The position numbers and the translations under genes were made by a program. Positions 6,421 through 52,824 of a stretch of 64,000 bases of DNA are shown here, in pieces (the first letter of the stretch is position 1; each line of letters begins with the position of its first letter). The stretch covers positions 40,880,985-40,944,984 of the forward strand of contig NC_081365.1 in the NCBI RefSeq assembly GCF_030684315.1, written 5' to 3'. This stretch comes from Stegostoma tigrinum (lineage: Eukaryota). The notes beneath the pieces were generated by a model. It searched no databases and was not told where the DNA came from. It saw only the letters and a list, made by a program, of their open reading frames with translations.

Positions 6421-6648
6421 TATCAACGCATTTGATCGGGTATTGCTGTGCGTTATCTGTAAAATTATGTAATTGAGTTATAAATAGGATTCTATTAATT
6501 TTATTTTTTTTAAAAATTGATTTGCTTACGATAGTTACGTATAAGCAATGATTTTCTTTTTAACATTTGGTCATCTTCAAATATGATGTTTAAAACGGTG
6601 ATGCATGACAATGATCACGCTGTTTGAAAGTTGGGTCATGTATCTCCT

Positions 6649-8442
6649 CATGTATCCCCCAACACCTCATATTCACCATGGACGTCCAGTCCCTGTACAC
6701 CTGCATTCCGCATGGAGATGGCCTCAAGGTCCTCCACTTCTTCCTGTCCCACAGGCCAGACCAGTCCCCCTCCACCGACACTCTCATCCGCCTAGCTGAA
6801 CTCGTCCTCACACTCAACAACTTCTCTTTTGACTCCTCCCACTTCCTACAGACTAAGGGGGTGGCCATGGGCACCCGCATGGGCCCCAGCTATGCCTACC
6901 TCTTTGTAGGTTACGTGGAACAGTCCCTCTTCTGCACCTACCCAGGCCCCAAACCCCACCTCTTCCTCCGGTACATTGATGACTGTATCGGCGCCGCCTC
7001 TTGCTCCCCAGAGGAGCTCGAACAGTTCATTCACTTCACCAACACCTTCCACCCCAACCTTCAGTTCACCTGGGCCATCTCCAGCACATCCCTCACCTTC
7101 CTGGACCTCTCAGTCTCCATCTCAGGCAACCAGCTTGTAACTGATGTCCATTTCAAGCCCACCGACTCCCACAGCTACCTAGAATACACCTCCTCCCACC
7201 CACCCTCCTGCAAAAATTCCATCCCCTATTCCCAATTCCTCCGCCTCCGCCACATCTGCTCCCACGATAAGACATTCCACTCCCGCACATCCCAGATGTC
7301 CAAGTTCTTTAAGGACCGCAACTTTCCCCCCACAGTGATCAAGAACGCCCTTGACCGCGTCTCCCGTATTTCCCGCAACACATCCCTCACACCCCACCCC
7401 CGCCACAACCGCCCCAAGAGGATCCCCCTCGTTCTCACACACCACCCTACCAACCTCCGGATACAACGCATTATCCTCCGACACTTCCGCCATTTACAAT
7501 CCGACCCCACCACCCAAGACATTTTTCCATCCCCTCCCCTGTCAGCTTTCCGGAGAGACCACTCTCTCCGTGACTCCCTTGTTCGCTCCACACTGCCCTC
7601 CAACTCCACCACACCCGGCACCTTCCCCTGCAACCGCAGGAAATGCTACACTTGTCCCCACACCACCTCCCTCACCCCCATCCCGGGCCCCAAGATGACA
7701 TTCCACATTAAGCAGAGGTTCACCTGCACATCTGCCAATGTGGTATACTGCATCCACTGTACCCAGTGCGGCTTCCTCTACATTGGGGAAACCAAGTGGA
7801 GGCTCGGGGACCGCTTTGCAGAATACCTCCGCTCAGTTCGCAACAAACAACTGCACCTCCCAGTCGCAAACCATTTCCACTCCCCCTCCCATTCTCTAGA
7901 TGACATGTCCAACATGGGCCTCCTGCAGTGCCACAATGATGCCACCCGAAGGTTGCAGGAACAGCAACTCATATTCCGCCTGGGAACCCTGCAGCCATAT
8001 GGTATCAATGTGGACTTCACCAGTTTCAAAATCTCCCCTTCCCCTACTGCATCCCTAAACCAGCCCAGTTCGTCCCCTCCCCCCACTGCACCACACAACC
8101 AGCCCAGCTCTTCCCCCCCCCACCCACTGCATCCCAAACCCAGTCCAACCTGTCTCTGCCTCCCTAACCGGTTCTTCCTCTCACCCATCCCTTCCTCCCA
8201 CCCCAAGCCGTACCCCCAGCTACCTACTAACCTCATCCCACCTCCTTGACCTGTCCGTCTTCCCTGGACTGACCTATCCCCTCCCTACCTCCCCACCCAC
8301 ACTCTCTCCACCTATCTTCTTTACTCTCCATCTTCGGTCCGCCTCCCCCTCTCTGATGAAGGGTCTAGGCCCGAAATGTCAGCTTTTGTGCTCCTGAGAT
8401 GCTGCTTGGCCTGCTGTGTTCATCCAGCCTTACATTTTATTA
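6649..8442 (+). mobile_element. Penelope-like retroelement (Neptune-type), 5'-truncated; uninterrupted RT C-half + GIY-YIG endonuclease ORF (to 8249), 3' UTR with hammerhead motif
   Basis: ORF 6624-8249 has FTMDVQSLYT, QTKGVAMGTRMGPSYA, RYIDD, Cys linker CNRRKCYTCPH and VVYCIHC..CGFLYIGET. 13-bp TSD TCATGTATCTCCT at 6636-6648 and 8443-8455. Confidence 0.93.
8351..8382 (+). ncRNA. Minimal type I hammerhead ribozyme motif (stem III CG>TG mutated)
   Basis: ct-CTGATGA-agggtctaggccc-GAAA-tg-TC-ag. Confidence 0.65.
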
Positions 8443-11400
8443 TCATGTATCTCCTGTATGGTTTTCTGAATTAGTTATCACTTTTTAGGATTGGGGATAC
8501 TAAATGTAGATTAAATGTAAATCAAGCTGTATACCTCGCTTCTGTTCATAGCTGGTATGATTTTGATTCTGTCTTCCCAGGTTTACATTCCTTCCTGCAC
8601 AATCATTCTAGTGGGGCGGAAATTTTATTTTTAGGTTCCAACATTATTCTAACCAAGTAGAATATGCTCCCTTTTGAGTGTAGTTCAGTCTTCCAATTTA
8701 AACATTAGTCACTAATTGGTTTCCTACCCTTTTTACATATTTAATCTTCAGATTTGTTAGCCTTTTGATATTCATGTACATAACTTGCGTAATACAGCCT
8801 TTATTCAGCGTGAGTTATTTAACTCTTCTAAAGCTATTGTTGACAGAATCCCACCATGTATAACTTGAACTGTTGACTTTTACATGTTCCCTCTACCTTA
8901 GTTAAATTGAAGGTGTCCTGTCTTGGCCAATCCTATAAAAATTGTGTACACAACTGGACTTTACCTTTTTTGTGAGATGATGACTAATTTAAATGTTTGT
9001 TTAATTTCATTGCCTATATGGCAAGCATTGTTAATAAAGTACATGGTAGTTATTAAAATATTTTATTAGCTTCACTTTTAAACGGAAGTTGTGGAATCAG
9101 AATATTGAACAAAAAATTTAGACTGATACATAAATTCAGTACTGAGGGAATTCTGTGTTACCAGCATTGCTGTGTTTCAGTTGAGACTTTAATAGAGGTC
9201 CTTGACTGCTGTCTGCAACTGACATTAAAGTTTCAAGGTACTGTTTAATGAACAGAAGCGAGATCACTGAAACATATATGACCTAGATTCCCGATGGCCC
9301 AAAAGCCATGGGAGCAACTTAAACTGGACTGTGCAGAATCTCTGACACATCTGACTCCTTGGGCAATTCCCTGGAATTTGAATTGACTGATGGCAATTCC
9401 CCTGCACTTGTACCCTTTGAAAATGTACAATAAAGTCAGAGAATTCAAAGGTTTCTGATGCAGTTAAGCTCAATACGTACCCAGGAAAAATTATAGGATC
9501 TAAAACATATCCTGACGTCTGAGTGAGTGTTAACCTGAAGTCCGCACCCACCACTGAGCCCCACAAGCACACTTCCTCAACCTTTTACTCTCCATTGGAC
9601 CCCTAGCTCCCACCCTCTAACCAGTTCACCCTTCTATCAAACCAACTTCTCCACCCACTATACTGGCCTGATCCCCTAAGAAATGACACTTTTTCCCACC
9701 TGTTGAACTGAAAATACTTATCCCTTCCTGGATCTTGGTCCTACATTTCCACTCCAATGGATCCAACAACTCCCAACCCAAACCTACCAGCCTCGGCTAC
9801 CACACCACCTCCCTCTGAGTTCCTCTTATGCCAATCACTGGCCTGATGCAAGCCCCTCTTTCCCCAACCCCTAACCAACCTGCACCCACCTGACCACACC
9901 TTGATGGAATTGGCAATTTCTCCACACCCCCACGCTGGTCTGTTTGAGCCTGGACATGATGACATTGCTGCCTGGCCTTTTCCCTGACCCAAAACCCCTA
10001 ATTTACCCTACGCACTGATTCACGCTTGCGACTCTACCGACATCACCCACCTCTTCCACCTGGCACTCTTACCCACACTGATCTTAACCTAGTTAGCTTT
10101 TCACAGAGGTTGCCAAAGTGCTGGCTGTGCTGCTGGACTTTTAAATTATGGAACATAACTGCAAATGGGGATGTGGATTCTAAGAAGATTTTCCTGGCTG
10201 GATTGTAAATCCTGGAAAGATTCATAACTGGAGGCCCCTGAAATAGGGTTTCTGATTTTGATCAGAATATTTAGAAAAATTTGCTCATTCGTTTGCATAC
10301 ATTATAAGTGATTGTACTTTAACAAAACGTATTGATTGTGAAGCACTTTGCAAGGTTATGAAAGATATTGTATAAATGTTGGTTCCTATTGCCTTATAAT
10401 GCCACTTAATTGGTTAAAATAGGAGCTTCAATGAATGCAGATTTTTCTTAACTGCCATATTATATTATATTGGTGAATGTGACAGAATTCTGGTATTGAT
10501 ACAGTATATATGATACTACAATTTATATTTTTGAATGGGACAAATAGAATTTGTTACAGCTAAGTTCCCACCCAGAAAATTTTACTTTGTGCATTTTAAA
10601 ATACCTTAAATGCCTTGCTTGTTAACTGAACCAATTCCTCTGCTGGTGTATGAGTGAAAAAATGTTAGTACTACTACATTTTATGAAGCTTTTACTTTGT
10701 TCACTCTTTTGTTATAAGCTTTCTGTTCCAGGTGATTGAAAATACTGACAACGTTCAGTTTGACATTTTATATTATGTTGCAGGCTTTAAATTTCATGCC
10801 TCTGCATCTGTAGCTATAAGAACAACTCAATACTGCATTCATGTAAAAGTCATTTGAATGTTGTATTAGCTATGAGGAGCACAAGCATAGACATGCAACA
10901 TAATAAATTATCATGTTTACTTCACTATAGCAACCCCAGTGTGCTTTCTTAAATTACTCCACCTTTTGTGTCGAATTTTGGTTTCAAATGTAGCAAAATG
11001 AGTAGACTGAATTGTAATTTTTATGCCATAATCTTTTTGTTGGTTCTGTGGTGTACAGTCCTTTTTAAATGTTTTGTTCAAAATTTGCTGTTTGCACTAA
11101 GTGACTAATGTAATTGAAACTAGCTGCAAGATCTGTACATAAGCAAGGTGCTTGTACAAGAAAACAAAATGCAGCATGTCAAAATGCTCGATTATAGTTG
11201 TGTTTTGTGTACAATTATGGTGGTACAATTGGTAACCACAGGAACCAGGGTATGTGGTCAGGCATGAAGGTGAGGAGCTATGTGACAACATACCTGTGGT
11301 CTAGAAATAGGTAGAAAACTGGAAATAGTTAGAAAATAACCATATACGCATTACGGTCCCAGTTCCAACTGTTGTTTTGTGCTGATTTAACTGGCATGTG

Positions 11401-11574: not shown

Positions 11575-11789
11575 GGTAAAATGTCAAAGAACTGTGGAGG
11601 CTGTAAATCAAGAACAAACAGAAAATGCTGGAAAAGCTCAATGGATCTGGCAGCATCTGTGAAGAAAAATCAGAGTTAATGTTTTGGGTCTTAAGGAAGG
11701 GTCACTGAAACCAAAATATTAACTTTGATTTTTCTTCACAGATGATGCCAGACCTGCTGAGATTTTCCAGCAACTTCTGTTTTTGTTCT
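11575..11789. mobile_element. Older PLE-derived asymmetric foldback element (second family)
   Basis: Inverted arms (gctggaaaagctc...ggcagcatctgtgaagaaaaatcagagttaat / attaactttgatttttcttcacagatgatgccag...ccagc); 10-bp TSD TAAATATGAA at 11565-11574 and 11790-11799. Confidence 0.75.
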
Positions 11790-23502: not shown

Positions 23503-24148
23503 CTGGGGACCGCTTTGCAGAACACCTCCGCTCGGTTCGCAGTAAACAACTGCACCTCCCAGTCGCAAACCATTTCTACTCCCCCTCCCATTCTTTAGAT
23601 GACATGTCCATCATGGGCCTCCTGCAGTGCCACAATGATGCCACCCGAAGGTTGCAGGAACAGCAACTCATATTCCGCCTGGGAACCCTGCAGCCCAATG
23701 GTATCAATGTGGACTTCACCAGCTTCAAAATCTCCCCTCCCCCCACTGCACCACACAACCAGCCCAGCTCTTCCCCTCCACTCACTGCATCCCAAAACCA
23801 GTCCAACCTGCCTCTGCCTCCCTAACCTGTTCTTCCTCTCACCCATCCCTTCCTCCCACCCCAAGCCGCACCTCCATCTCCTACCTACTAACCTCATCCC
23901 ACCTCCTTGACCTGTCCGTCTTCCCTGGACTGACCTATCCCCTCCCTACCTCCCCACCTACACTCTCCTCTCCACCTATCTTCTTTTCTCTCCATCTTCG
24001 GTCCGCCTCCCCCTCTCTCCCTATTTATTCCAGAACCCTCTCCCCATCCCCCTCTCTGATGAAGGGTCTAGGCCCGAAACGTCAGCTTTTGTGCTCCTGA
24101 GATGCTGCTGGGCCTGCTGTGTTCATCCAGCCTCACATTTTATTATCT
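23503..24148 (+). mobile_element. Penelope-like element, 5'-truncated (GIY-YIG C-half + 3' UTR + intact hammerhead motif)
   Basis: GDRFAEHLRSVRSKQLHLPVANHF...EQQLIFRLGTLQPNGIN; near-identical to 7806-8442. Possible short TSD TGTCCC. Confidence 0.92.
24054..24085 (+). ncRNA. Minimal type I hammerhead ribozyme motif, intact core; predicted cleavage after C24083
   Basis: ct-CTGATGA-a-GGGtctaggCCC-GAAA-cg-TC^ag: conserved CUGANGA, GAAA and UH boxes, stem II GGG/CCC, palindromic ACGU at stem III as in PLE-associated dimeric hammerheads. Stem I is only ~2 bp by eye. Confidence 0.75.
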
Positions 24149-24972
24149 TGTCCCTCAAAACCACTACATTACCCATGATGTACAGAGACTAGATAGAAAG
24201 TGTAAATGCTTTGTATCCTGAACTGAGTCTACAAGTATTTAACGAACACTTTGTGGTAAAAGATTATCCAGATATCTTGTTTTCTCTTGTATAGGCTTTT
24301 TCTACAGATGTTGCCTGAGTTTGTTTTCTCCCTCTCTCTCTCTTTATGCGTATGCATCCTCAGACATTAATAAATGTGCTGCAACCTGATGGTAATCCCC
24401 TGTGAGTTCTTGAAAATCAGAACCACATGCTGTGAAAACATGGATGACTTTTATTTCCTTCGAGACTCCTCTGCTGTTATATGTGTAAGATAATCTTAAA
24501 TTAATGAAATGACCAATGTAATTTTTAATACAGTTCTGCACCTACAAGACCATGCAATTTTAGGGGCCTCTTGTGCTCCAAGTATTGGTCAAAGATGTTT
24601 TCACTTTTGCGAGAAATAGAGCTGGGTGCATGTGCCTTGTTAGCAAAGATCCTTACGTTTTCTCCATTATGGTCAGAAGCATTTTGATTGAAGAGTTAAA
24701 GTCAGTTCTGCAAGCTTTTGTCATTCTAACACTTTACATCCAAAGGAACTGTGTCTGCAGACCGTTAGCTATATGTGCTGTAATGTGTTCTGGAGGGCTT
24801 GAAGATACGGTATGCAATTTGCTGTCATGTGTACTAACTACACCATAACTTTAGAAAGTTGGCCTATGTTGGTAGATACACATCTCAAAATCCTGTATAA
24901 CTCCTAGAATAAAAATAGCAATGTTTCACTGGCAAATCTTACTTTTCAAATCTTAGGAAGTGCTAAACAAAA

Positions 24973-45000: not shown

Positions 45001-47196
45001 TTCTGGCATCATGCCATTATCTCAGAAGCTTGATTTATTCAATCCTGCTGTTAAAGTCTGAGGCCAATATGTGGGAAGAATACATTATTTTTTCCAGGCA
45101 AATGACATTAGGGCAGATGAAAAACAAAGAGTAATTCTCCTGACAGCTTGTGGACCTGCAGCTTTATCGGTTATCAGGAGCCTAACTCTCCCTAAGGCAC
45201 CAGATACTAAAACCTTTCAATAGTTGATGGATTTAACTAAAGGATATTATGACACCAACCATCCTCTAACACTGAGGTGATATTGGTTTTACTCAGCATT
45301 TTGAGAACCAGGGGAATCAGAATCAGGATTTTTGACTAGGTTAAGATGACTGGCAGAGGTATGTGACTTATATTTAACCCTTAATGAGATGCTGACAGAC
45401 TGCTTGGTACGCGGGTTTAATGATGTAACTATACAAATCAGCCTAGGACCTGAAGCCTAACTGCACAACAACTGACTTTATCATTGGAAAATGCAGCAAG
45501 TGGAGCATATGAGTTGCAGCATTTTTGGATGGAAGTGGACAGCCTTACCAGTCCAACTGAGCTTGAGGAACATCACTTGAGAGAAGACAATTGCATAGCC
45601 TCACTCAGGGCATATCCTGAAGAGGGACTCGAGGTCAGCTCACAGCAAATCCCCAAAACAAAGTCAAGCTTCAACCAATTGGTTAAAATTTTCTTCAGGA
45701 TCTGGACCACCAAGCCATTGAAGTTGCTGCTGGTATGCATACTTAAGACAGCAAAAGAATCCCTCTAGACCTAAATTAAGTAACTTATAGGCCAATATCC
45801 AGTTAAGTGCGTGCCTGGAAAGTTTACTACATCTGGTTTGGAGCAGTTAAATTGCTTAGCAACATCCAAATCAGAAACAATCAAAGTAAATGTCTGGTTC
45901 TAATGGAGATCAATAATGCTGTGGCCGTTTCATTGAATGCAGAACCAGTCTTCAACAAAATTCATTGTGGACTTCAGAATAGCAGCTGGTTCAGTTAACA
46001 ATTGTAGGAAAATTGCTGGGGCAAAACTGGTTGAGAAAGATTCACCAAAATTGGTTCAACATTTTTTGATTAAAAAATGGCTGCTTGAGTGAATTAAATA
46101 CCTGAACGTTTTTCAAGAAGGTCTAGGTCTATCTGAGGAGCCAAGGCCAACTTGCATGTTGACCAGGAAGCAATTCCACAATTCTACAAGACCCACCCAG
46201 TGCCATATGCCATATGGGCAAAAGTAGAGACAGAAATCAGAAGGTTCCAAAGCAAAGGAATCATCAAACTAGTCCAGTTGCAGAATGGACAGCACCGGTC
46301 ATAGTGATTATGAAGCCTGATAGCTGGTTCATCTTTGTGGGGTTTTAAACAAACAGCAGCTGGAAAAATACCCTAATCCCTTACAAGGGAGGGGCTGTTC
46401 TTCCCAAAACTGGATTGCAGCCATGTGTACTTGCAATTGTGGCTAGATGATTTCTAGAAATATGCTACAATTAATACTCATAAGGGTTTTACCAATATAC
46501 AAGACCATTTGGGTTATTGTCAGCATGTGCAATTTTTCAGGGGACAATGGAGAGCATTTCACAGGATCTACCCTGGTTGCAATTTATTTAGATGATGTGC
46601 TAATAACAGGGAAGGCCAATAAGGAGAACTTAGACAACTTGGGCATAGTCCTTAGATATTTCTCCCAGGCAGGCAAACACCATAGAACGGAAAAATGTGT
46701 TCCAAGCACCCCAAGTGACTTTGAGCAACAGAATTGACAAACCAGGTCACACATATGGGAACATAACAGGAGGGCGATTAAAGGATCCCTAGGTCTCAGG
46801 TCGGTACCAGAGCTTTTGTCTTTTTTGGAGTGGGTGAATTATTATCGAAAATTCACACACAGCCTGGCCTCCATCCTTTGCGTCAACTCTTAAAAAAAGG
46901 TCAGACTTGGAAACGGTCGCATAGCCAAGGCACGGCTTTCAGTGAAATGAAGAAACAGATATCAAATTTCACAGTGTCGGCACACTATGATCCCAAGGAA
47001 GATCTGGTATTGACACGCAATGCCTCCCTATACAGTATCGGGTTGTAATTAGCTCATAGGTAGCCCAATGGAGAGGAACACCCAATCCAGGACTTTGGCT
47101 AATGCAGAGTCTTATTATGCTCAGATAGAGAAGGAAGGTTTGGCGGTCATATTTGGAGTCAGGAAGTGACATCAACACCTTTATGGATGTAATTTT

Positions 47197-48717
47197 ACAT
47201 ACATAGAACATAACAGCACAGTACAGGCCCTTCGGCCCTCGAGGTTGTGCCAACCTGTCATATTGATCTCAAGCCCATCTAACCTACACTATTCCATGTA
47301 CATCCACATGCTCATCCAATGACGACTTAAATGCACCTAAAGTTGGCGAATCTACAACCATTGCAGGCAAAGCGTCCCATTCTGTTACTACTCTCTGAGT
47401 AAAGAAACTACCCCTGACATCTGTTCTATATCTTTCACCCCTCAATTTAAAGCTATGCCCTCTCGTGCTCGCCGTCACCATCCTAGGAAAAAGACTCTCC
47501 CTATCCACCCTATCTAACCCTCTGATTATTTTATATTTTTCAATTAAGTCACCTCTCAACCTCCTTCTCTCTAATGAAAATAGCCTCAAGTCCCTCAGCC
47601 TTTCCTCGTAAGACCTTCCCTCCATACCAGGCAACATCCTAGTAAATCTCCTCTGCACCCTTTCCAAAGCTTCCACGTCCTTCTTATAATGCGGTGACCA
47701 GAACTGTACACAATACTCCAAGTGCGGCCGCACCAGAGTTTTGTACAGCTGCAGCATAACCTCTTGGTTCCAGAACTTGATCCCTCTATTAATAAAAGCT
47801 AAAACACTGTATGCCTTTTTAACAGTCCTGTCAACCTGGGTGGCAACTTTCAATGATCTGTGTACATGGACACCGAGATCTCTCTGCTCATCTACACTAC
47901 TAAGAATCTTACCATTAGCCCTGTACTTTGCCTTCTGGTTACTCCTACCAAAGTGCATCACCTCACACTTGTCTGCATTAAACTCCATTTGCCACCTCTC
48001 AGCCCAGCTCTGCAGCTTATCGGTGATAATGGGAACTGCAGATGCTGGAGAATCCAAGATAATAAAGTGTGAAGCTGGATGAACACAGCAGGCCAAGCAG
48101 CATATCAGGAGCACAAAAGCTTTTGTGCTCCTGATATGCTGCTTGGCCTGCTGTGTTCATCCAGCTTCACACTTTATTATCTGCAGCTTATCTATGTCTC
48201 TCTGCAACCTACAGCATCCTTCGTCACTATCCACAACTCCACCGACCTTAGTGTCGTCTGCAAATTTACTAACCCATCCTTCTACGCCCTCATCCAGGTC
48301 ATTTATAAAAATGACAAACAGCAGTGGACCCAACACCGACCCTTGCGGTACACCACTAGTAACTGGTCTCCAGGATGAACATTTGCCATCAACTACCACC
48401 CTCTGTCTTCTTTCAGCAAGCCAATTTCTGATCCAAACTGCTATATCTCCCACAATTCCATTCCTCCGCATTTTGTACAATAGCCTACTGTGGGGAACCT
48501 TATCGAACGCCTTGCTGAAATCCATATACACCACATCGACCGGTTTACTCTCATCTACCTGTTTGGTCACCTTCTCAAAGAACTCAATAAGGTTTGTGAG
48601 GCACAACCTACCCTTCACAAAACCGTGCTGACGATCCCTAACCAATTTATTCTTTTCTAGATGATGATAAATCCTATTTCCTTATAATCTTTTCCAAACA
48701 CTTTACCAACAACTGAG
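47197..48717 (-). mobile_element. Young 5'-truncated CR1 LINE inserted in the Gypsy RNase H region
   Basis: Minus ORFs [33 protein letters not shown] and QRDLGVHVH..LEYCVQFW; 8-bp TSD GTAATTTT (47189-47196, 48718-48725). Confidence 0.93.
48022..48179. mobile_element. PLE-derived foldback centred on AAAAGCTTTT, nested in CR1
   Basis: Perfect palindrome of ~60 bp per arm plus tail; 13-bp TSD TCTGCAGCTTATC (48009-48021, 48180-48192). Confidence 0.92.
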
Positions 48718-51700
48718 GTAATTTTGTAATAACGGACCACATACCCCTGTTAGGTCTGCTTAAAGAGGGCAAGTCAGTGCTGCCTATAACTCCAGGCCGA
48801 CTTCAGCAGTGGGGTCTAATACTAGGTAAGTATAATTACAAATTCAAACATCGTTTTAGGAGGCCAAGTAATAAATGCAGATACATTGAGCAGCCTCCTG
48901 CTGGCAGATATACAATCGATGGTACAACCACTGGAAATGTCCATAATGTTTTCAAATTTTCTGGATACAATTCCAGTCACAGCTGACAATATCAGACTTT
49001 GCAGACATAGTAAGATCTAATTCTGGTAAAACTGAAACAGCTGGTGATGATGGCAGAACTAAAGGGTCAGAATTGAAGCCTTTTTGGACCCAACAAGACC
49101 AGATCACAATATAGGATGACATATTATTACAGGAAGTAAGAGTGATTGTCCGAAGCTAAAGTACTATCTGAACTTCACCAGGGATATCCGGGGGTTCCAA
49201 AATGAAAATGTCAGTGAAAAGTTATGTCTGGTGGCCCAGGCTAGATACAGACACAGCTGCATTGGTGGGGCAGCACCCAGACAAAGATTACCACCAACAT
49301 CTTCCACACACTCATGGGAAGGGCAGTGTAAACCCTGGACTTGGTTACACTATGCAGGTCCTTTCACAGGCTCAATGTTCTTAGTCATTGTGGACGCCTT
49401 GTCAAACTGGTTGAAGTGCACAAAGTTTATTCATCAAACACACAGACAGTGATAGAAAAACTGCACACATATTTTGCAACACACAAATCCCGGACATATT
49501 GGTCACAGATAACAGGCCATCGTTTACTGGCAGGGATTTAAGGATATTTCATAAAGGTGAATGGTATTCACCATATAAGGACAGCTCCACACCATTCAAC
49601 GGTTTGGCAGAAATAGCAGCCCAAACTTAAAAGGCAGGTTTAAAAAAACAGCCAACAGCTTCACTGAATACAAACTGTCCCAGGGATAGCTCTAGTAGAG
49701 TTGCTAACTGGTAGGAGACTACATACTAGGTTAAATTTGATCTTTCCAGACCTAGTAGGGGTGGGGGATGCGTAAGGAACACCAATACCAGATACAAAAC
49801 TCCACTAAGCAAGAGAGACATCATCCTTCAGGGAATAAATTTTGATGGGCAAACCCCAAAAATGGCCCTTCATGGGTATGACACATGGTTGAGGTCAGGT
49901 CCAGTGACGAATAAAGTTTGGGTTAGTGTGACAGTCCTGAACAAACACAAAGACAACATGAAAGCTGCAAACTCATCCATGGTGTGGTAGCAAAACATGC
50001 CCAGCTCAACAGCCTTTCCAACCGTTCTGGAACTCACGGGTTCTCCCTCCCGATCAAAGTTTTAAGATACTCAGAATCTGAGATGAATATGGTGGATTTC
50101 ACCACCTCAGCGCCTTTGCTGCCTCGTGAAGTGGATGAAATTCTTCCAGGATGCTGCAGGCGCAACAGGCAAGTTACTGCTCTTTACATACTGCCTGTCC
50201 CAGAGGCAGAGTTGGAGGAACTTGACCCAGTGCTAAAACATCCCACGAAGAGCTACGAAAGGCTTATATCCTCAGACTCAGGCAGGGAGGGATGCAGCAA
50301 TTGTACGGAGGTTGTCCAGGTGGAGATCACAGAAAATAAGTTCCCTGGTTGGGGCTATCTGCCTGGTCCAATCAGGGAGCCCTGGCTGACAGCTAAGAAC
50401 AAGACAGTCAGACATTCTGTTCACTCTAAGAGCTGGCTTAGACAGCTTGATCAGCCTCAAGGACTCTCCATGTTAAAGAGAGGGCAATGTGGTGATGGGA
50501 TGCTGACATCTGTGGAATTATTTCAGCTAATATCCCAAGATTGAGTGAATTGAAACCAAAATATGCCAAGATGCAGCTGTATTGTCTAAATGCAACTAAT
50601 ATGCCCAATCTGTAATTTTTCTGCGTAAGAAAATACATATACCAACCTGCCAATTACTGATATTTATATTGATGAAACAAATCCACCACTCCAGCTTATC
50701 CGAAATCTCACTTTTCACAATGGTCCACTGAATAAGACTCATTTACTTGGTACAAATCATGAAATTGTATTAATTACTACAGCCAATTTACTGAATTTGC
50801 CTTGAAGGTTACCACACGATTGGTGTTATTTGGGTCAGTATTTTAAGACTTTGAGCAACAAATTTTGAATGAACACCAAATTAGCGGGCCTAAACAACCC
50901 TTCTAGATTGCAAAAGGTACTCTCTCTTATTTCCTTGCTCTTTCACTACATCCTTTTACATTCTTCCTTTGCGAGTGCATGTGAAAATACTTTTTAAATT
51001 GTGATATGTCTCTGCTACAATTTTTATTTAAATAATTGCATGTTTTAATAACCTGTATGAAAAGAATTCTATATATCTTGATATGTCTGTTAATCTCGAG
51101 TCTTTGAAAACTCAAGTCTTTATGCTCTTTTAGCCTGTAATTCAACATTCTATTCAACTGAAAAGACTAAAGAATGGATGGACAAACATTTTACAGTTGT
51201 ATCAAAAGCAAAACGGCATATTTCTTTATAAATTGAATACTCTGACTTGTACAATACTTCATAGGTGACACAATATAGACCACACTGATCTAACTGGATA
51301 TTTTGTTAACACTTGATCAGATATAGTCATTTTCAACTCTGCACCACATTTAAGAAGATAGAAAATTCCGCTTTTCCACTCATACATATAAATACACATT
51401 AAAACACAAAAAAAAACAAGTGGCAGTATAAATACATAATCATTGTCATAACTGGGCGAAACCTGAGGTAAAGATTCAGGCAGTTTATGAGAGAGAATAG
51501 TGATGAATACATCACTGTGCTTCTTAGACCGATATATCGTATTGCTTATATTTTTAAGAAAAATGTGCATATGTGCAAATAAGAAAATCCTTTAAAACAT
51601 AATGATTGCATCAAAGTATTGCCAGTTTTAAAGTCAACAATAACAGCAGTAACAGTGCACAACCTGTTCATGTCACTGTAACTTTTTCATTAGAAATAGG

Positions 51701-51886: not shown

Positions 51887-52047
51887 CTGCAAATAAAAGA
51901 AAAAGAATCTGTGCTAAGTCAGCTCTTGGTAGTACTTATTTGAAGCAGTAATGATTGTAAAATAACATTCAGTTTATTCTAATTGTCAAAGCACAAGGGT
52001 ACATGAACTTGCAGTTTGCAGTGGTAAATAAACAAATTATTATCGTA

Positions 52048-52268
52048 GATAATGGGAACTGCAGATGCTGGAGATTCCAAGATAATAAAATGTGAGGCTG
52101 GATGAACACAGCAGGCCAAGCAGCATCTCAGGAGCACAAAAGCTGACGTTTCGGGCCTAGACCCTTCATCAGAGCCTCTCTGATGAAAGGTCTAGGCCCG
52201 AAACGTCAGCTTTTGTGCTCCTGAGATGCTGCTTGGCCTGCTGTGTTCATCCAGCCTCACATTTTATT
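52048..52268. mobile_element. PLE-derived asymmetric foldback insertion with hammerhead motifs on both strands
   Basis: ~90-bp near-perfect arms meeting at tcatcagagcctctctgatga; 14-bp TSD AAATTATTATCGTA (52034-52047, 52269-52282). Confidence 0.92.
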
Positions 52269-52824
52269 AAATTATTATCGTAATTTGTTTCCAGAAGAAA
52301 CTATATATTTGACTCAAAGACTAAATACTTGGTTTAATTAACAATTGACTAGTTCACTATCTAGCTTGATAACTGTACTAAACTTAACTGATTTATACTT
52401 TTATTATGAATCCACTATTGGACAATTTGTAAAATGTTTTGCCATATGCAAACTCATGGAGATGTTGGTTTTACATTTGTTGATCAATTTTGAACCATAT
52501 CTTTCACAAGCGGCCTAACAGGTCTTACAACTGATTCTAAAGAAAAGGTCCTACATTCAAAATGTCAACTCTGCTTTCTCTGCTGCCAGACCCACTGAGT
52601 TTCTTCATAAGTTTCTGTGCTTTTTTTTAGAAAAAGAGAATCAGCATAAGTGGGTCGTGTTGAAGTTGGCAAACTGTATCTGGTTTAACTAACAGGAAGC
52701 ATTGTTGGGATATGGAGTATTTACAATCTATATTAATGATTTTAATGAAGGGATCAATTGTATTGTATCATTAGCCTATTTAGCTACAGATATGTGCTAG
52801 AGAGCACATAGTGAGGAGGACAGA

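Follow-up and report, generated by a model that had tools for sequence, protein, structure and literature searches.

At positions 48022–48179 of the window, the whole stretch of 64,000 nucleotides that was analysed, lies a 158-base hairpin inserted between two 13-bp target-site duplications on the forward strand (48009–48021 on the left and 48180–48192 on the right), identified from the sequence and from a contig joint. Coordinates are in window numbering throughout, and element positions, given with a plus or minus sign, are counted from the predicted hammerhead cut. The insert is a zero-loop palindrome: a perfect inverted repeat of 63 nt per arm (48057–48119 and 48120–48182), 100% complementary with a spacer of 0 nt, centred on AGCT at 48118–48121. 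According to the sequence, an inverted-repeat search and comparison with the parent element, this AGCT, which belongs to both arms, corresponds to the first four bases past the predicted cut GUC^AG. The preliminary description had placed the symmetry axis at the predicted end of the cleavage product and had found the hammerhead core missing from the centre; both points are borne out.

Alignment to the parent showed that the arms are unequal. The long arm (48022–48121, reverse strand), on the left, runs from +1 to about +97/+100 and includes a "tail" of about 34 nt (about 48022–48056, same strand). The short arm (48118–48182, forward strand), on the right, runs from +1 to +65, and its final 3 nt are common to the right target duplication. 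The variant previously described as common to both arms and foreign to the other copies is a G>T change at +18, present at 48104 in the long arm (reverse strand) and at the mirror position 48135; none of 168 bystander arms carries it. The unequal arms and the 13-bp duplication had been overlooked, as had the fact that the cut route accounts for a small minority of insertions.

The insert splits the reverse transcriptase (RT) frame of a host LINE copy (approximate limits 47200–48700, reverse strand), which we take to be of CR1/L2 type; in stop-to-stop translations, this frame runs on past both sides of the insert. Contig comparison gave a joint, 48008>48180, at which 13 letters match both sides; the comparison covered contigs from four runs, and the element, like its LINE flank, is high-copy. 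An assembly foldback artefact was rejected, since the arms differ in length, a target duplication is present and the host frame is collinear. The host LINE itself interrupts decayed frames at 46400–47200 and 48700–50000, which presumably resemble LTR-retroelement pol, giving three nested insertions. Elsewhere in the window, another long hairpin (11646–11752) has a weak microRNA-precursor score and falls outside the Penelope-like family by sequence comparison.

Parent element and hammerhead motif

A 5'-truncated parent copy lies at 6615–8454 on the forward strand, where ORF and profile matches reveal a frame with RT, HTH_animal and GIY-YIG parts followed by the hammerhead-bearing end. Its ORF (6615–8249, 544 codons) runs into the same end sequence as the insert at 48022–48179. 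It matches RVT_1 (E=2e-4) and then GIY-YIG (E=0.014), both below the Pfam cut-offs, and its top Atlas cluster is RVT_1/HTH_animal/GIY-YIG (0.98, 215/256 features). On the order of RT and GIY-YIG in the ORF and on the Atlas match, we call the parent an endonuclease-positive Penelope-like element (PLE), a class assignment made from sequence. Around 12 relatives inside the window display the arrangement attributed to the parent in the preliminary description, reading CTGATGA-A-GGGTCTAGGCCC-GAAA-C-GTC^AGCTTTTG. Alignment places among them a single-arm copy with an intact motif at 24054–24150 (forward strand, predicted cut 24083^24084), and the common head-to-head form, joined upstream of the hammerhead at about -30, is represented by the reference copy at 52045–52269. 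When contigs of run X1 were compared with 24000–24150, 3 of the 12 rows listed reached back to 24084 (+1).

From 1.56 Mb of bystander sequence, we estimate about 290,000 arms of this subfamily in the genome; the genome-wide counts given below cover 3.2 Gb. At 95% likeness the element is near-absent in two other organisms. Inverted, 5'-truncated copies with a 30–40-nt tail on one end are found in the family and at 48022–48179. In type, the insert is an end-stub in head-to-head arrangement that belongs to a Penelope-like element, and structures of this kind are known. A non-LTR retrozyme was considered and rejected, as the window holds no tandem array and the parent has an RT–GIY-YIG ORF.

The motif comprises the core CUGAnGA, GAAA and a UH triplet, a stem II of GGGUC/GGCCC with G10.1–C11.1, and an extra base after A9. 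We took 212 such motifs from retrieved loci with a regular expression that presupposes the core. Helix I is just 2 bp long: pair 1 is formed in 200 of the 212, pair 2 in 181 and pair 3 in 50, and pair 2 covaries (C–G in 102, U–G in 46, U–A in 30). According to PMC4209133, as far as its accessible text goes, helix I is usually 4–5 bp, and 2 bp in a variant of D. virilis. By its core and stem II the motif fits a minimal type I hammerhead, for which self-cleavage is predicted. Folding prediction of the monomer and co-folding did not return the hammerhead form; an alternative hairpin, CUGAU/GUCAG with its base at +2, dominates. The palindromic helix III ACGU is present, and co-folding did not yield an active dimer. 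Dimeric cleavage of such hammerhead variants was reportedly described in a 2017 paper. An Rfam scan gave no hammerhead match, only hairpin look-alikes on other copies.

Two side observations concern the motif. G(+2) is lost, as a single nucleotide, in 6 of 30 loci (L236–L239, L245 and L251); this would break pair 2 of helix I, and the loss marks either a sublineage or a trace of end processing. A second, older hammerhead-bearing family (L070, L255, L310 and others) has a longer stem II and the cut GUU^AAC, and constitutes a natural control, the bases after its cut not being self-complementary.

Junctions genome-wide

The genome-wide junction count suggested in the preliminary description was carried out. 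Exact zero-loop palindromes centred on AGCT at the cut number 727 and a reversed control pattern gave 0 matches, so the junction is not a product of chance. With gaps of 0–30 nt allowed, AGCT anchors yielded 2274 palindromes. The four other symmetric centres gave between 24 and 313: GGCC upstream, in stem II (313), CTAG (144), ACGT 5 nt upstream of the cut (53, with a CpG-tolerant pattern) and GGCC downstream, at +29 (24). Arm anchors were counted for AGCT (352k), ACGT (346k), upstream GGCC (765k), CTAG (383k) and downstream GGCC (547k); per anchor, AGCT joins are 5.1 times more frequent than those at upstream GGCC, 5.5 times than at CTAG, 13 times than at ACGT and 47 times than at downstream GGCC. 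By inspection, AGCT has the least extra pairing of the five. The anchor-scaled controls predict 15–144 AGCT joins, which leaves 80–98% of the 727 as excess, and the count is thus not accounted for by self-complementarity alone.

These figures bear on the possibility that the RNA is not cleaved at all, and that cDNAs truncated at random, or hairpin tips deleted later, are joined at AGCT for its self-complementarity. Symmetric 4-mers other than AGCT are indeed used (313, 144, 53 and 24 times), and microhomology is seen at many asymmetric joins. Against this, ACGT, an equal 4-mer only 5 nt away that would require a shorter deletion, is 13 times rarer. Moreover, arm mismatch is 1.6% in AGCT-type copies (47 copies) and 4.0% in long-centred bystanders (22 copies) with the same anchors (p=0.014). 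The AGCT copies thus appear to be the younger and not the older group, which argues against deletions piling up after insertion, with the caveat that loss or homogenisation of perfect hairpins could shift the mismatch likewise. A-tails at the scissile bond, described below, are also left unaccounted for, and altogether we find cleavage-free joining unlikely. The specific alternative raised in the preliminary description, a later deletion between two AGCT copies, is likewise disfavoured, though possible at this single locus.

AGCT-type haplotypes match the bystander mix (p=0.46), which indicates that the junction arose many times, at insertion. One amplifying palindromic master was rejected, since at least 13 haplotype strings occur among 51 copies in bystander proportions. 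A permissive search found target duplications of at least 8 bp, mostly 14–18 bp, in 40 of the 51 AGCT-type copies.

We then analysed arm starts without symmetry, using patterns that demand four non-parent bases ahead of the start and leave out the exact symmetric class. Raw counts were 373 at -1, 1350 at +1, 433 at +2 and 513 at +3. Classification of 90 of the 1350 matches at +1, and of 30 at each other position, returned true starts (asymmetric inverted or single) in 65/90 at +1, 24/30 at -1, 26/30 at +2 and 25/30 at +3, that is, by extrapolation, about 975, 298, 375 and 428, respectively. Because A-rich junction additions inflate starts on A, an A-start control was run at +17 (655 matches, 27/30 true). 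After this control, the non-symmetric excess per anchor at +1 is 1.5–1.9 times, and 1.3–1.6 times for single arms; as an indirect genomic trace of cleavage, this result is positive but modest. Among 100 matches listed and read by eye, non-symmetric starts at +1 and at -3 number 7 each.

An end at +1 could also come from stalling of the RT at the CUGAU/GUCAG hairpin, from transcription starting at TCA(+1)G, or from a host nuclease acting at CpA. The alternative hairpin is the predicted monomer fold, and we assume that TCAG at the cut resembles an initiator. Yet starts at +2 and +3, the positions expected for a stall at the hairpin, form no spike (433 and 513 versus 373 at -1), and the site lies at the predicted cut of a hammerhead motif that is conserved and shows covariation. 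The A-rich inserts described in the next section also speak against an end made without the ribozyme, which we judge very unlikely.

Most arms read through the cut. Between -5 and +5 begin 11 of 153 bystander arms, and we estimate that about 1–1.5% of arms begin at the cut. The main cluster of starts (48 of the 153; L001–L355 plus the window) lies at -35 to -26, the front edge of the hammerhead, and could reflect an RNA start, an RT stop in a C-rich tract or CTCT/AGAG microhomology. Cleavage would accordingly be a side route, or be mostly undone without a scar, most templates being either uncut or seamlessly rejoined. Direct tandems, with a further copy that begins exactly at +1 behind the 3' end of the element, were seen at L153, L267 and L294.

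A-rich inserts at the predicted cut

To find scars, we searched collinear copies for a net gain of at least 2 nt between -5 and +8. Among the 100 matches listed of 147 found, 39 were read by eye as having untemplated, A-rich bases inserted precisely between C(-1) and A(+1). These inserts measure 2–13 nt and some are mixed with T, G or C; C(-1) is absent in 8 of the 39 scarred copies and four bases are absent in 1. The remaining 61 listed comprise slips and duplications, along with a few inserts of other kinds; 4 of the slips concern an AAA run already present, and one insert, short and AT-rich, lies at about -2/-3. In a control segment with a CpA, 21 matches and 0 A-rich inserts were found, about 38 being expected at the scar rate (39/100 listed versus 0/21, Fisher p=1.7e-4). 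Older subfamilies showed A-scars in 2/35 and 2/34 matches, or about 2e-4 per intact copy versus 3.3e-4, with denominators resting on 4 and 6 bystander copies. Small deletions around the cut (165 matches, 100 listed) gave no clear cut-site signal. In five scarred loci that were retrieved, haplotypes and tails differ, and the copies extend upstream into the element body, to -1253 and beyond.

In the simplest reading, a scar would mark where a 3' end at -1, after trimming and tailing, was joined to the 5' end at +1; these two ends look like the two products of hammerhead cleavage. Oligoadenylation, as in RNA decay, would be the source of the tails. A stall or a transcription start, by comparison, yields no tailed 3' end at -1, and the control CpA, with its 0 scars, speaks against a host nuclease.

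Four A-scarred loci have a partner arm, which ends at +1, +1, +9 and about +20. In all 9 loci with a long-arm lesion at the cut and a partner, the partner ends at +1 (three times, one of them taken from the junction as printed, BLAST having placed it at -3), +2, +8, +9, about +20, -593 and -997. Among 20 long-arm entries used for comparison, 3 end at or after +1 and 1 at +1/+2. These partner-arm stops are suggestive of a template jump rather than RNA ligation, in a post hoc test on small numbers (3/9 versus 1/20, Fisher p=0.076).

Formation of the two arms

We analysed 304 head-to-head pairs. A long arm (ending at +90 to +98) is combined with a short arm (+55 to +75) in 251 of them, whereas 14 have two long and 8 two short arms. 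Single arms use either 3' site (31 long, 18 short), and pairs lacking a long arm altogether (15/304) are rarer than short arms among the single ones (18/49; p=4e-9), whereas snap-back from a short first arm would produce many such pairs. The two arms agree in subfamily haplotype: at +49, 10 of 178 pairs are discordant versus 85.8 expected. This concordance led us to reject two different RNA templates per insertion for most pairs. In four pairs (L197:1474, L005:1465, L246:1458 and L112:1450) the arms differ in haplotype at 3–5 sites, which suggests occasional use of two RNAs. Together, long-with-short pairing and haplotype concordance fit two RTs working at adjacent sites on one RNA, one per target strand. 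In vitro, both target strands are cut and then extended by the protein of an anole element, which begins at two internal sites that bound the tail, according to the accessible text of PMC11167929.

The preliminary description had proposed that the cDNA annealed or snapped back through AGCT. Annealing through AGCT fits the data; snapping back does not. Self-priming of the second arm on the first cDNA of a cleaved RNA would explain why the arms have a common haplotype and a private variant, and palindromic inverted junctions of rotifer Penelope elements have been read in this way (PMC3846280, accessible text). However, a single strand cannot form a zero-loop centre, the end of the second arm is a fixed site which also serves single arms, long-with-short pairs are far commoner than predicted from either start, and the few pairs with discordant arms, one of them at 5 sites, also speak against such a scheme. 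We therefore hold snap-back to be highly improbable, and favour two primed cDNAs, with which the long-with-short pairing agrees.

Discussion

The structure of the insert, its target duplication, the fixed 3' ends, the haplotype identity of the arms, the junction excess and the A-rich inserts are direct observations. From these, it is very probable that the element RNA is cleaved by its ribozyme in vivo, in the germline. The earlier reading of the insert as a fossil of such cleavage is supported at the level of the family, through the AGCT excess, the spike of starts at +1 and the A-tail scars at the scissile bond. The copy at 48022–48179 is itself likely to derive from a cleaved RNA; no feature sets it apart from the 2–20% background of AGCT joins.

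The mechanism that we propose, from cleaved RNA through twin-primed cDNAs to joining via AGCT, seems reasonably likely as a whole. In the germline, the hammerhead would cut the RNA, probably acting as a dimer or with protein assistance, and the target would receive a 13-bp staggered cut. Two RTs would then be primed from opposite strands on the same RNA, with start sites at +98 and +64, the long arm coming from a cDNA primed from the top target strand and the short arm from one primed from the bottom strand. Both cDNAs would run off the new 5' end of the cleaved RNA, leaving AGCT-3' ends that could anneal end to end over 4 bp before fill-in; alternatively, one AGCT end may invade the AGCT of its partner, with the same product. 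In scarred copies, one cDNA would have jumped from the +1 end onto the oligoadenylated 5' cleavage product. Whether the copies record the entire in vivo cycle (germline cleavage by the ribozyme itself, a 5' product that is trimmed and oligoadenylated, an end-to-end template jump over the cut and an RT dimer that primes twice on one RNA) is a question on which we find the evidence evenly balanced.

Several known systems resemble the one described here. Pen2 and Pen3a of Adineta vaga (PMC3846280; scheme in PMC8557442; accessible texts) likewise show head-to-head arms, a palindromic junction and target duplication, with a 30–40-nt tail on one arm and an RT and GIY-YIG parent (PMC3846280). Here, in contrast, the junction is mapped genome-wide, one class falls exactly at the hammerhead cut, and two primed cDNAs are favoured over self-priming. 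PAc (Poseidon of Anolis carolinensis) is similar in having two internal sites where the RT starts and which delimit the tail, in cutting and extension of both target strands, and in the hammerhead in its pLTR; in the accessible text of PMC11167929, ribozyme mutants left insertion unaffected and RNA-seq showed no ends at the cut. The traces of cleaved templates seen here, as a minority route, differ from this picture, and a minority route agrees with the dispensability in vitro reported there.

In metazoan PLEs, minimal type I hammerheads (PMC4209133) have the same CUGAnGA/GAAA/UH core, an extra base before stem II, G10.1–C11.1, a palindromic minimal helix III and, in D. virilis, a 2-bp helix I; the variant described here differs in being known from sequence alone. 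In vivo evidence is absent from the accessible text of that paper, where cleavage and re-joining are merely proposed, and the role of PLE hammerheads is described as unclear in that of PMC8557442. A parallel is provided by R2 elements (PMC3774820, accessible text), which have an HDV-like ribozyme at the 5' end: their genomic 5' junctions record its cut, and the cDNA, having run off the end so created, is joined through microhomology or with added bases. Ribozyme and element class are different, however, and the R2 cut sets the normal 5' end, whereas here it concerns about 1% of arms; A-tailed joins to the upstream fragment are present here and were not encountered for R2 in that text. Animal non-LTR retrozymes (PMC7229834; bioRxiv 10.64898/2026.07.22.740005; accessible texts) also have a type I hammerhead and are PLE-related. 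Their RNAs undergo self-cleavage and RtcB-mediated ligation in vitro, and their cleavage products, too, are proposed to be rejoined. Unlike these tandem non-coding units, the copies here are dispersed inverted stubs from the end of an ORF-bearing element. In the Penelope-hammerhead literature, mainly open-access main texts, we found no cut-centred junction excess, A-tail scars or twin priming.

The structure at this locus is ordinary; the family to which it belongs offers good evidence for a ribozyme that cuts the template of transposition. If the full cycle is true, an RT dimer priming from two fixed sites would help to give a joint account of the tail, the head-to-head arms and the cut-centred palindromes. 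The counts quantify the cut route, at about 1–1.5% of arms, and specific products are predicted for the in vitro system already in use. Together, counts of junctions and of A-tail scars would make up a DNA-only assay of ribozyme activity, applicable to any genome rich in Penelope-like elements.
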